Shown: piece after piece, positions 17,561-23,134 of the stretch | How positions within the stretch are numbered: the stretch's first letter is position 1 | Layout: each line of letters begins with the position of its first letter | Source: Mobula birostris | Lineage: Eukaryota | Length of the DNA: 64,000 nt | NCBI RefSeq assembly: GCF_030028105.1 | Contig: NC_092381.1 | Span: 60,600,505-60,664,504, forward strand | Direction: 5' to 3' | Translations under genes and position numbers: made by a program | Notes under the pieces: model-generated | What the model was told of the DNA's origin: nothing | Databases searched by the model: none | The model's input: only the letters and a program-made list of their open reading frames with translations

Positions 17561-18348
17561 ACAAACACAAGAGATTCTGGAGATGCTGGAAATTCAGAGT
17601 AACATATACAGAATGCTGGAGGAACTCAGTACATCAGGCAGCAGCTATGGAAAGGAATTTACAGTCGATGTTTCAAGCCAAGACCCTTCATCAAGACTGG
17701 AGAGGAAGGGTAGAAGAAGGCAGAATAAGAAGGTGGGGGGGGGGAAGGTGGAATATGAGGTGTTGCTCCTCCAATCTACTTGACATAGATTGGGGGCCGC
17801 TTTGCTGAGCACCTTCACTCAATCTGCAATGAGCAGGATTTCCCGGTGGGCAGCCATTTTAATTGCAATCCCTATTCCTATTCTGACATGTCAGCCTGAG
17901 GTCACCTCTACTGCCACTTTCATGTTGGAGCAACAACACTTCATATTCCATCTGGGAAGCCTCCAAATGGATGGCATGAACATCAATTTCTCTAACTTCC
18001 AGTAATTGTTCCCCCTCCCCGTTCCCTCTTTTTCCATTTCCCACTTTGGTTCCCCTCTTACCACTTTTCTTCTCCTCAACTGCCTACACCTCCCCCTGGT
18101 GACTCTCCTCTTCCCTTTTTTCCCCATGGTCCACTCTCCTCTCCTATCAGATTCTTTCTTCTTCAGGCCTTTACATTTTCCACCTATCACCTCCCAGCTA
18201 CTCACTTCACTCCCACCTTCATATTCTGGCACCTTCCTCCTTTCTTTCCAATCCCGATGAAGGACTTCAGCCCAAAATGTCGACTATTTATTCCTTTCCT
18301 CAGATGCTACATGACCCGTTAAGTTCCTCAAGCATTTTGTATGTGTTA
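17561..18348. mobile_element. Penelope-like element with inverted pseudo-LTRs and GIY-YIG C-terminal remnant
   Basis: Inverted terminal copies, each with a decayed hammerhead (17662-17700 minus; 18249-18286 plus); peptide LEQQHFIFHLGSLQMDGMNINF. Confidence 0.85.
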
Positions 18349-18372: not shown

Positions 18373-21300
18373 ATGAAGGTGACAACCAGGAATAGTCCGG
18401 TGACAGCGTGGAGAGACAGCGGACAGCCAGGAAAGACTGGCACCGGGGGTGTCAGGATTGGCAGTCCGGGCACCAGCTCAGAAGAGCACCCACCTCTTGA
18501 AGCTTCTAGTTTACATGGAGAAACATACCCTTGGGGTCCTCCAAGAGGGAGGGAGAATGATGGACCCAATCGGACGAATACAGTTAATTACAGGGAATGT
18601 CTACGACCAAGAGCTAGGATAAGAGGCTCTGAGTGTCCAGTGTGTTGGTGTCGGAGAGCGTTTTCCAGCATTAAAGGTTTACGAGTCCACCAAGCAAAGT
18701 TGAAGTTGCTATTCCATCCCAGTGGATGAAGATGAGATTACTTCACCAAGCACAGATGATGTGGTCTTTTCAACCACTGATTCACAAGCCACAGCGATTC
18801 GCTCTGGAGAGTGTCATCATACTCCAGGTCAGACGAGAGATAACCTAAGTCAGGTTTCAGACCACAGTTCCCAGGTAGATTCTTCGCATGATGGCGGTGG
18901 TGAGGAGGTAGAGAAGAAGAGGAAGGTCAAGTGGCCAGCAATGGCAGATGAGAAGGTCTGGCGTGTAGTTGATGAGGTTATCAGTATGATGTTGGAGAAC
19001 ACTCTCAGGGGAACATCAAAGAGAAAGTTGGAAGTGATGGGCGATATGATTTACGACGTTGGAAAGTACAGGTTTGGTTTGGTTGAGTTGAAGAAAACAA
19101 AGCCTACACAGCAACCAAGCAGGCGCCAGAAGGAGATTAGTAGGTTGAGGAGAGAGCTTAGATCGTTGAGACAGAGGTGGATGGTAGCAAGTGAGGGTGA
19201 CAAGCCAGGGCTTGCTGATCTCCCACAGCATTTTCAAATAAAGTTAGCATCACTCCATCGTGCAGAGTCACAATGTAAAAAGAGAAAGAAGAGAGAGAAG
19301 GCAAGAAAGTCGTTCTTTGAGAACCCTCACGAGTTCACAAAGAAACTGTTTGAACGAAGTAAGAGCGGGCAGCTTAACATCTCTCAACAAGAACTTGAGG
19401 ATCACCTGGCAAGCACTTACTCTAACGAACAGCAGGAGGCTCCTTTGCTTGACATTTCAGGGCTTGTGAAGCCTACCAAGCCAGGAGTGAAGTTCGATCA
19501 TCAGAAAGGCAAGGTCAGGCTCAGTGCCAGGACCTAATGGAGTGCCGTATAAGGTGTCCAAGAAGAGTGAACAGCTGAGGAAATACTTGTGGAGATTGTT
19601 AAAGGTGGTGTGGAGACAAGGTGTTGTTCCTTTGTCATGGAATGAGGCTGAAGGAGTATACATCCCGAAGGAAGAGAATTCTTCTACATTGAATCAGTTC
19701 CAACCAATTTCACTCCTGAATGTCGAGGGGAAGATTATGTTTGGCATTCTGGCAGAAAGAATATCTTCATTTGTGATTGAGAATGGATTAGTAAATACAT
19801 CTGTGCAGAAGGCAGGAATACCAGGCTTCCCAGGTTGCCTTGAACATTCTAGTATGATATGGCATACCATCCAGGAGTCAAAAAGGTTGAGAAGAAATCT
19901 GGGGTGTAGTTTGGCTTGGTCTGGCAAATGCATATGGTTCTGTTCCCCATGTCCTGATTGAGTTTGCGATGGAATTCCTATGGATTCCTGCTAAGGTGAG
20001 GAAATTTGTTATTCAGTACTACAACGATTTCCAGATGAGGTTTTCCACTCAGTAGTTTACAACTAGGTGGCAGAGCTTGGATGTTGGAATCCCAATGGGA
20101 TGTGCAATTTCACCCATCCTTTTTGTGTTAGCCATGGAGGATATTGTGAGGGCTGCAGAATCAGTGGGACCAGGTGTCGCACTTGATGGCAGAGAGGAGT
20201 TACCACCAATACGAGTGTTCATGGATGATCTTACCCTTTTGGGTCCCAGCACGGAGGCAGTGGAAAATGTACTATCTAGGCTCGAGGAGCTAATGGATTG
20301 GGGAAGAATGAAGTTCAAGACCAAGAAGTCAAGGAGCCTTGTTCTTAGGAGAGGAAAACTGGTTGACTTTCATTTCACCCTTTGTGGAGAGGAGATTCCA
20401 TCCATTCAGGACCAACCAGTTTAGAGCCTCGGGCGATGGTACACAGAGGAGCTGAGAGACACCGAGAGGGTTAAAGAGACAGGAGGACAGATCAGCAGAG
20501 CTCTGATGTCTGTTGACAAGTGTGGCTTGCCCGGCAAGTTGAAGTTGTGGTGCTTGCAGTACGGACTGACGCCACAGATAATGTGGCCACTAACTGTCTA
20601 CAAAGTGGCAATGTCCCATGTTGAGGCAATGGAACGGAAGATCAGCAAGTATGTGAAGAAGTGGCTTGGAGTACAGAGCAGCCTCACCAACGTTGCAATC
20701 CACAGTAGCCAGACAAAGCTTACCATCCCAGTGCAATCCCTTGTTGAGGAGGTCAAAGTAGCCAAGGTAAGATCATTCTTGATGCTTCGAGACTCAAAAG
20801 ACCCTGTCATCAAGAACACCCGGCCGGATGTGAGATCAGGCAGGAAGTGATCAGCTCATGTAGCAGTTGATGAGGCAGAGTCTAGATTGAAGCACAAGGA
20901 GGCGGATGGGGCTATCCAGCTAGGCCACCAGGGACTTGGATGGACAACCCACAAGTGGTGGTCATCTTCTATAGGTAAGGAGCGCCGTGAGCTTGTAACA
21001 CAAGAAATACGAGAGGTAGAAGAGGAGAAGAGGTTAACTAAAACAGCTGGCCTGGCCAAACAAGGGGCTTGGACCCGGTGGGAAAGTGTTGAACAATGAC
21101 ACCTATCTTGGAATGTTCTGTGGCAGATGGAACTGCTCCGCATTTCTTTTTTATGCAGAGCAGCGTACGATCTGCTCCCAACACCTGCCAACCTCAGCAC
21201 CTGGTATGAAGATAAGACAGACAGGTGTGCTGCTTGTGGCGAGAAGGGAACACTTCAACATATCTTGAGTGCATGCGGAGTCAATCTTTCCAGCGGCATG

Positions 21301-21884
21301 TACACTGGGAGACATAACAATGTTCTCAAAGTTGTAACAGAAGCGGTGGAGCAGAGAGTACTGCAGCACAACTTATCTCATGCCCCATGCTGCACAGAAC
21401 ATCGCATATCATTTGTGAAAGAAGGTTCCAAGTCAAGGGTGTACAGCGCAGGCTCACGATCAAGCATACTTTCTTCAGCCAATGATTGGTGTGTCAAGGC
21501 TGACCTGGACAGGAAAGGCAATTTCCCGGAGCAATAGCTTTCACTACATTGCGTCCAGATATAATCATATGGTCTGACACCAGTAGGGAAGCGGTTATTG
21601 GTGAACTCACAGTCCCCTGGGAAGACAAAATCGATGAAACCCATGAGCGCAAGTTAACCAAGTATGCAGAATTAAGATCAGAGTGCAGAGACAGAGGTTG
21701 GAAGGTCTCATGCTATCCATTCAAAGTAGGCTGCCATGGGTTTATTGCGTTCACTCTCCAGAAGTGGCTGCATGACCTTGGCTTCACTAGAAGAGAGATC
21801 AAGTCAACCAGCAGGGCTGTAGCTGAGGCAGCAGAGAAAGGGTCAGTGTGGGTGTGGACCAAGTATGTCCAGAGGGGCAGATAG
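18373..21884 (+). pseudogene. Disrupted RT-RLE polyprotein of the Hero-like element
   Basis: N-terminal CPVCWC...GLRVHQAK Zn finger; RT motifs PGPNGVPY, FQPISLLNVEGK, SVQKAGIPGFPGCLEH, GIPMGCAISPILF, FMDD, KFKTKKS; CAACGEKGTLQHILSAC (CCHC); RHNNVL; RPDIIIWSD...GELTVPWED...RKLTKYAEL (RLE). Split by several stops and frameshifts and an apparent deletion near 19500. Confidence 0.92.
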
Positions 21885-22161
21885 TCAGACAGTGTATACA
21901 TACCTTGCAAACCCTTCAGTAGTTGCATAGACACCTGAAGAGTAGACTATCTGTTGGATGGAAGTGACCAATAACTCTGATAGAGGCATATGCCAAGTTT
22001 TTAAGCTTACTAGTGGGAGGTGGTGCTTTAGCACTGCTGGCCCACCACCTCGAGGGAGTCTTGATCATAGGCGGGCCGAAACTCCTGAAGACAGGTGGCA
22101 GATCAACTGATGATCCCACTGGTGATAGCACAGGACAGTTAACATCTTAGTCCACGTGTAT
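18378..22161 (+). mobile_element. Near-full-length R2-group non-LTR retrotransposon with restriction-like endonuclease (Hero-like clade)
   Basis: Single ancestral ORF with Zn finger, RT, CCHC and PD-(D/E)xK RLE domains; structured 5' and 3' UTRs; abrupt change in composition versus flanks; no poly(A) and no unambiguous TSD. Confidence 0.9.
22007..22125 (+). ncRNA. Predicted non-circularly permuted hammerhead ribozyme with kink-turn, in the Hero-like 3' UTR
   Basis: CTGATGA 22107-22113, GAAA 22078-22081 and GTC 22058-22060. Stem I 22061-66/22101-06; stem II 22039-43/22073-77; stem III 22054-59/22081-86. K-turn plus helix 22045-50/22093-98; closing helix 22007-18/22114-25; hairpin 22019-38. 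Confidence 0.8.
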
Positions 22162-23134
22162 TTTGTAGCTGAACAAAAAATGCCATCATTAAATAAGTAG
22201 TTCTACTTTGTAATATTTGGAAATATGTGGGTGGAACTTTTATACTGCTTTCTCTTTCCACTGTGGATTTTAATGTGTTGATATAAATATGTATTGGAAA
22301 ATCCGAATCATGTATATTCATTTTCTTGCAAGATGAACAGACAACACACCATGAATACATTCAAAGCCAATCTGTCAGTGGAAAGCACAAAATATAAGCC
22401 AGTAATAAAATGATACAATTGCACTTTGCTAAATTAAATGCATGTTAAATGCAATGGATTTGATAAAGACACTGAGCACACCTATATTAAAAAGCAAAAC
22501 AAAACAGCAGATGCAGTAAATCTTAATTTGAAATAGAAAATGTTGGCAATACTCAACAGGCCAGGAAATATTTGTGTTTTGCTTTTCACAAAAACTGCCT
22601 GGCTTGTTCAGCAATTTCTGTTTATATCGGAACACAACTAAACTTAGTTATATTAGCACTAAATACTAAATATCCAAATTAATAGGAAGACTGACTCTAA
22701 CAACGCAATACCAATAATGTACACTAGCTTATAATATCCTCTACATTGTTCATCCTTAACTTGCTTGAATATTATCACTATTCATGATGTAACTCCGATT
22801 ATATTTTGCCCAGTTATTCAGAAATCCCAATGATTTTGCAGATTGGATGGTTCCTGCTCTCCTCTGCACAGACCGGAGTCTGGGCTTTCAATGCTCTCCT
22901 CAACACCTCAGATTCCAGCTCCTCCCACTCCCTTCACACCTATGAAGGTTCTGTTTCCACTTCTTCAGTTAAACTTATCAGTTTTGCTGGGAAACTCATT
23001 ATACTGCATAATATTCAAAATAAAAATGAATTTAAAGTATATTAGGATATTAATAGGAAAATATCTAATACTTAAGAAACTCTGCAGGTCTGGCATTACC
23101 AAAGCCTCAAGCTTGTGAGATTAGCTTTCTCTGT

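Follow-up and report, generated by a model that had tools for sequence, protein, structure and literature searches.

A candidate kink-turn hinge in an unusually wired hammerhead motif from the 3' UTR of Hero-like retrotransposons

The 3' UTR of a Hero-like non-LTR retrotransposon in the window, i.e. the complete 64-kb stretch of DNA analysed here, holds the strands of a hammerhead ribozyme in an unusual order, and its stem III is prolonged by what reads as a kink-turn (k-turn). What is a k-turn doing in such an RNA? A sequence-only reading of the locus had proposed that the bend makes a permuted topology possible by bringing stem III's far tip back to stems I and II, and that a host protein of the L7Ae family, 15.5K/Snu13, might tune cleavage through it. 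We consider it probable that the k-turn is the architectural hinge of an unusually wired hammerhead in the 3' UTR of Hero-like retrotransposons. The sequence, the pairing pattern, its conservation and its covariation are observed; from these we infer a kink in three dimensions, a role in folding and catalysis.

The host element and the k-turn at 22045-22098

All coordinates refer to the forward strand. The host element is represented by a broken open reading frame (18704-21884) with a reverse transcriptase (RT), a CCHC zinc finger and a restriction-like endonuclease (RLE); these coordinates delimit the reading frame only. A domain search returns RVT_1 at an E-value of 9e-10, while zf-RVT stays under its cut-off, and the endonuclease motif was read by eye, Pfam giving no match for it. 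The element is putatively a Hero, as the earlier reading named it. The traits of the Hero clade are present, namely a single reading frame with RT, CCHC finger and C-terminal restriction-like endonuclease, and dispersed insertions, and the name appears to fit. The closest named protein relatives come from lancelet and brittle star (60-75%), and members of the Hero clade in lancelet and fish are listed in PMC7650587. No relative of the host protein was found in the viral contigs searched, and no prominent target-site duplication among the 20 largest direct repeats.

The 3' UTR extends from 21885 to 22170, as the copies at the 30 loci compared part after ~22170, and 2,210 sites in the 4.0-Gb genome match a 26-nt pattern of the tail. 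In two sequencing runs (X1 and X3, not X9 and X10) the contig depth is more than 20-fold higher over the last 80 nt (22080-22160), with a step at ~22080 that comes with loose ends at 22082 and differing tail and flanking letters. The step probably reflects another repeat, possibly a short non-autonomous element that borrows the Hero-like tail in related species. Between the stop codon and the ribozyme, tRNA-like sequence was seen by eye in the 3' UTRs of L048, L050, L051, L056, L057, L060, L062 and L069. Upstream of the element, a decayed minimal hammerhead-like repeat with CUGAnGA, a short stem II and a GAAA-like segment lies at 18253-18283, and many further matches to this repeat type appear to be its minus strand. 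Penelope-like elements carry minimal hammerheads, which this repeat presumably resembles.

The k-turn spans 22045-22098, where all the elements proposed from the sequence alone were recovered. The NC helix consists of 6 bp between its non-bulged strand (9n-4n, 22045-22050) and its bulged strand (4b-9b, 22093-22098). It is followed on the non-bulged side by C22051 (3n), G22052 (2n) and A22053 (1n), which face the bulged strand at 22087-22092, with GAA at L1-L3 (22087-89), G1b (22090), A2b (22091) and C22092 as 3b. The C helix, which is stem III of the hammerhead, opens with a U.G wobble at -1b,-1n and pairs its 16.x strand (22054-22059, last base U16.1) with 22081-86. Both flanks are canonical helices of 6 bp that covary in homologs. 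The linkers agree with those given earlier, A22044 towards stem II and CA (22099-100) towards stem I.

A descriptor of 6 bp plus GA on one strand and a 3-nt bulge, GA and 6 bp on the other, the strands within 60 nt, matches the window at this site alone on both strands, and it matches 7 of 20,000 dinucleotide shuffles of 22005-22130. Genomic copies of the window's family differ from the majority base by 2.7% on average; all four GA/GA bases are kept in 63 of the 76 spanning copies, and the window copy has the majority sequence throughout the k-turn. An amplified subfamily with A2b changed to G was considered and rejected, the change occurring in 6 of 88 copies with no diagnostic variant common to the group.

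A hammerhead opened inside block C

The surrounding core follows the order S, G, C of type-SGC hammerheads. Block S contains N17 (C22060), after which the cut is predicted by analogy with hammerheads (between 22060 and 22061). It is followed by the 1.x strand of stem I (22061-22066), which pairs with 22101-06 and shows 3-4 pair types per position among the cluster representatives of the homologs. Next come the 11.x strand of stem II (22073-22077, last base C11.1), G12-A13-A14 with the 15.x strand of stem III (22078-22086), and the 2.x strand of stem I followed by the CUGAnGA core (22101-22113, with C3-A9 at 22107-13). The strand after CUGAnGA gives 0 bp of stem II in the window and pairs upstream instead, as helix P0 (22114-22125, directly after A9, 12 bp with 22007-22018). 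The 10.x strand of stem II is displaced upstream to 22039-22043, with G10.1 at 22039 and the 1-nt linker A22044 completing this segment (22039-22044), and between it and P0 lies hairpin P1 (22019-22038, 8 bp), which adjoins both P0 and G10.1 without a linker. A9 and G10.1, which in hammerheads are contiguous apart from at most 1-2 inserted nucleotides, are hence separated by P0 and P1, and an uninterrupted block C (stem I, CUGAnGA, stem II) is found only in two distant relatives, L086 and L107. Core and stems otherwise have hammerhead character, with the reservation that the core letters are in part imposed by our parser, which left N7, N17 and 11.1 free. No Rfam family reached its gathering score in the 64-kb window, and the Rfam hammerhead models had no match at E-values up to 10 in 21900-22200. 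The interruption of block C accounts for the failure of Rfam and descriptor searches to find these RNAs.

With a narrow search range, 12 of the 17 split-type clusters have an upstream strand that starts with G10.1 and pairs over at least 4 bp, compared with 1461 of 8500 shuffled sequences (17%), and a wider range adds an upstream stem II in three more clusters. The upstream G10.1-C11.1 pair is absent in L031/L033 and in L070. A perfect P0/P1/II junction is present in 13 of 29 homologs and in 160 of 5800 shuffles (2.8%).

The proposed RNA would thus run from stem II (10.x) through the NC helix, the k-turn and stem III (16.x) to the cut site and stem I (1.x), and then through stem II (11.x), GAAA, stem III (15.x), the k-turn, the NC helix and stem I (2.x) to CUGAnGA. 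Such a wiring can be described as a type-SGC hammerhead whose ends are joined to form a ring, which is then cut open elsewhere, between A9 and G10.1, with P0 and P1 inserted at the opening. The helix that extends stem III would then also be the one connecting stems I and II at their tips, and it would have to reach both tips through linkers of only 1 and 2 nt. A k-turn bend of ~50 degrees could return the helix, so that the NC helix would take the place of the tertiary contact between stems I and II. In a crude, back-of-envelope helix model the tips lie 30 Å apart at 50 degrees, as opposed to 47-64 Å at 90-180 degrees. The two helices that follow A9 might, on the other hand, inactivate the hammerhead core.

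The nested minimum-energy fold contains P0, P1 and stem II and lacks the k-turn arm; the ribozyme fold needs two pseudoknotted stems, which a nested folding program cannot score. A perfect 9-bp helix between 22017-22025 and 22043-22051 is a competitor in the window's family; perhaps formed first in transcription, it could tie up the NC strand and obstruct the k-turn arm. This helix is not conserved, as it has 9 bp in the window's family only and 3-7 bp in other families.

Conservation and replacement of the k-turn in homologs

Homologs were collected by reading of 3' UTRs and with a parser that requires the core and the stems, the GA pairs being left free. Among the best 80 of 112 loci kept from a metagenome scan, 32 carry the motif, while the other 48 are cut short or show none; 29 of the 32 were used, the near-duplicates L034, L042 and L087 being left out. 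The window's genome adds four families (that of the window, L168, L174 and L146), one of which has 1,940 pattern matches compared with 7 for a reversed control. The resulting set comprises 33 hammerheads from 3' UTRs in 19 clusters at 80% identity, and cores outside the window's own cluster are only 53-69% identical to that of the window. Because CUGAnGA and GAAA were demanded by the parser, their conservation is partly circular. As a MAFFT alignment was out of register for one clade, pairs were counted by script, with the register fixed by the stems and not by the GA bases.

Twenty of the 33 hammerheads have a 3x6 loop that separates stem III from another helix, 19 of them with the bases of a k-turn and one (L043) with a plain bulge; the k-turn is thereby kept in 19 of 33 members and in 10 of the 19 clusters. 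All 19 k-turns have A1n, G2n and A2b, and G1b is found in 16, one lineage having A instead. Conservation of the GA/GA pairs had been named beforehand as a point on which the k-turn assignment could fail, and the assignment withstands it. Variation is seen at L1-L3, 3b and 3n, and the NC helix has 4-6 kinds of pair at every position. The NC register gives a mean of 5.8 of 6 pairs against 1.7-4.1 off the diagonal, in members that were preselected for at least 5 of 6 pairs. Seventeen of the 19 have a bulge length of 3 nt, the bulge is on the strand expected of a k-turn, and G12 and C3 are spaced 27-30 nt apart in every one of the 19. At -1b,-1n we found C-G in 12, U.G in 6 and U-A in 1, and 16 of 19 carry a purine at L1, in line with known k-turns (PMC5061560).

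Two deviations were noted within this set. In the lineage of L050, L056 and L062 (and L087) an A is fixed at 1b, giving A.A at 1b,1n, while the relative L064 has the standard G; judged by its bases, this lineage has a natural non-standard k-turn. In a second family of the window's genome (L153-L172), ~17 of 20 copies among those listed have a stem III mismatch two pairs from the k-turn, which suggests amplification of a subfamily whose C helix is weakened.

The k-turn register is absent from the remaining 14 homologs, most of which close the same wiring by a bulge of 3-7 nt. On the opposite strand, 6-7 nt are bulged in L031, L033, L036 and L059 and 3-4 nt in L049, L063, L073 and L110. In L043 the bulge is of 3 nt and GA pairs are missing, in L048 one base is added to a loop that resembles a k-turn, in L069 such a loop has decayed, and the loop of L070 is small. 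L070 is also a further variant in that it has no clear stem II. Downstream of the reading frames of distant RLE retrotransposons, L086 (2790-2880) and L107 (~1518-1610) contain intact type-SGC hammerheads, which may reveal a link of this type to retroelements.

A quick protein tree of 51 rows with SH-aLRT support only places k-turns in at least four subclades, and it groups the window's family with the bulge-bearing L031/L034/L036 (support 92), likely its sister clade. One gain followed by several replacements is the simplest reading of this distribution, although the tree does not prove the order. The proposal that the k-turn enables the permuted topology hence stands in part: a conserved, canonical k-turn caps stem III where the wiring needs a sharp bend, but this solution is not general, since the homologs without the register mostly use a short bulge. 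As some of these have only 3-4 bulged nucleotides, a kink of 50 degrees is not strictly required. By its distribution the k-turn appears to be a conserved but replaceable bend.

Cleavage, protein dependence and alternative readings

Genomic copies bear on whether the RNA is cut. Among 90 unselected copies (the first 90 tail matches listed) none ends at the predicted cut and 86 run through it; none starts at 22058-64, and four start 3' of the cut. No indel footprint was seen there in 77 long copies. Since no copies end at the cut, the inserted copies came from RNA that was uncut, rejoined or seamlessly crossed, which limits the role of cleavage. Eight of the 90 start within 15 nt at 22039-53, a cluster of a density reached in 235 of 20,000 simulations. 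Several of these truncations fall at 22039-41, where hairpin P1 has its foot, a hint that the hairpin was folded during reverse transcription. An error of the reverse transcriptase on crossing a nick was considered because five of eight short copies but ~4 of 78 long ones are changed at the cleavage triplet (post hoc, p 2e-4). It was rejected, as genome-wide variant copies were short in 2 of 22 and 0 of 8 cases compared with 1 of 15 controls, and one of the two short variant copies came from the discovery set.

Could the fold, including the k-turn, be kept merely as a shape that the protein of the element binds for target-primed reverse transcription, a tail that is recognised and does not cut? 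The uninterrupted copies and the intact cut site would be expected of such a tail, the strand after CUGAnGA sits in P0 and not in stem II, and a cut 110 nt from the 3' end looks costly to a retrotransposon. Inserted copies, however, need a usable template and are thus biased towards uncut RNA, and the upstream strand provides a stem II with G10.1 in register and covarying pairs. At the positions left free by the parser, N17 is A in 16, C in 11, U in 6 and G in none of the 33 hammerheads, each of the four bases occurs at N7, and 31 have C at N11.1. An N17 that is never G next to a free N7 is the pattern of a catalytic constraint, and it is held across proteins that are only ~30-45% identical. 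We regard the non-cutting tail as unlikely and catalysis as the reading to which the core points. Slow or reversible cleavage might then remove or nick the 110-nt priming tail and limit the intact template, while uncut or rejoined RNA would supply the insertions, a role we suggest with little confidence. That the GA/GA loop is retained by descent, or as a generic flexible internal loop that does not adopt k-turn geometry, we hold to be very improbable. The geometry is predicted from sequence, the members share ancestry and plain bulges suffice in other lineages, but the defining bases are fixed while L1-L3, 3b, 3n and all NC pairs vary, and the bulge keeps its length and its strand.

The proposed tuning of cleavage by 15.5K/Snu13 found no support. 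By the rules of Lilley, a C at 3b or a G at 3n leads to folding in Mg2+ alone unless the pair is Watson-Crick (PMC5061560). With C.C at 3b.3n the window's k-turn falls into the class predicted to fold in Mg2+ without protein, as it should in the proposed architecture, and 12 of the 19 homologous k-turns are of the ion-folding type (C.C 6, A.G 3, C.A 2, U.G 1; rules 2-3). The other seven lie outside the prediction for ions alone (U.U 4, as in box C/D; C-G 2; A-U 1) and could speak for a protein, as could the U at L3 in 10 of 19. 15.5K prefers U at L3, but the window copy has A. One lineage, with A at 1b, moreover lacks the G1b that L7Ae proteins contact, and in several lineages the k-turn has given way to a bulge, a loss that conservation of a regulatory contact ought to prevent. 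A ribozyme whose cleavage is switched or tuned through the k-turn by 15.5K/Snu13 or another L7Ae-family protein therefore seems to us decidedly unlikely. Mere binding of an L7Ae-family protein may be possible, because all 16 3b,3n variants of Kt-7 folded on L7Ae (PMC5061560) and four of 19 homologs have U.U. In a third family of the window's genome (L141-L149, e.g. L146:2167-2245) the k-turn reads like box C/D, with U.U at 3b,3n and U at L3. By these bases the L146 family is the best candidate for 15.5K binding.

Returning to the hinge, a broader picture can tentatively be drawn around it. The RNA would be a catalytically active hammerhead that falls beyond the six permutations considered possible, a ring of SGC type whose opening lies within block C. 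It would be present in thousands of copies of animal retrotransposons and, in many lineages, closed by a natural k-turn for which plain bulges can stand in. The cut tail would remain paired with the rest of the RNA, and cutting and rejoining, possibly gated in some lineages by a host k-turn-binding protein, would set the amount of intact template. If the hinge holds, this would be the first natural k-turn built into a hammerhead as far as the openly accessible literature searched shows, which returned no paper on a Hero hammerhead or on a k-turn in a natural hammerhead. The natural series of k-turn, non-standard k-turn and 3-7 nt bulge offers a ready-made test of bend geometry against cleavage rate, and RNA switches that respond to proteins would have a natural scaffold in a hammerhead that contains an L7Ae site of its own. 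It also raises the question why a retrotransposon should keep a cutter in the 3' tail that it needs for priming.

Relation to known k-turns and ribozymes

With standard simple k-turns such as Kt-7 of Haloarcula marismortui and that of the SAM-I riboswitch (PMC5061560, PMC4914095), the window's k-turn shares the C helix, the 3-nt bulge, the G.A and A.G pairs and the NC helix, as well as the G at -1n, an ion-folding 3b,3n class and the proposed enabling of a tertiary contact. It differs in its C.C at 3b.3n, in the U.G at -1b,-1n and in an NC helix that ends in a pseudoknotted junction with stems I and II. Unlike them, it is situated inside a small retrotransposon ribozyme of the self-cleaving type, for which cleavage is predicted.

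Self-cleaving motifs are likewise borne by other retrotransposons, among them the minimal hammerheads of Penelope-like elements. HDV-like ribozymes are found at the 5' end of R2 and others (PMC13580325, PMC7650587). In contrast to these R2-type 5' ribozymes, the window's motif is internal to the 3' UTR, with 110 nt still to follow before the end, and release of the 5' end from a co-transcript can therefore not be its role. The pseudoknot-containing hammerhead of Zhan et al. 2024 (PMC11300833) also holds a hammerhead core in a compact pseudoknotted frame; in that RNA, unlike ours, the G10.1-C11.1 pair of a short stem directly follows A9, and neither "k-turn" nor "kink" occurs in the text searched.

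The closest relatives are the type-SGC non-circularly permuted hammerheads (HRIMA-1 and variants; Eckert et al. 2023, PMC10085705), with which the window's RNA shares the S-G-C order, the complete core consensus and a helix by which stems I and II are brought together at their tips. Type SGC has been described only from metatranscriptomes and the window's type from animal-type genomic retrotransposons. Eckert et al. assume that block C is uninterruptible and know of no insertion there of more than 1-2 nt (PMC10085705). In the window, P0 and P1 part A9 from G10.1 and divide block C, with the 10.x strand upstream, and a split of this kind would break that assumption. Just one geometric feature of type SGC was left unexplained, namely the direct connection of stem III with the I-II helix at their far ends (PMC10085705); the terms "kink" and "k-turn" have no occurrence in the main text and supplement of that study. 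In the window RNA, unlike in type SGC, a k-turn joins stem III and the I-II helix on both strands, and as a hinge it would give a concrete answer to this open geometric question of non-circularly permuted hammerheads.
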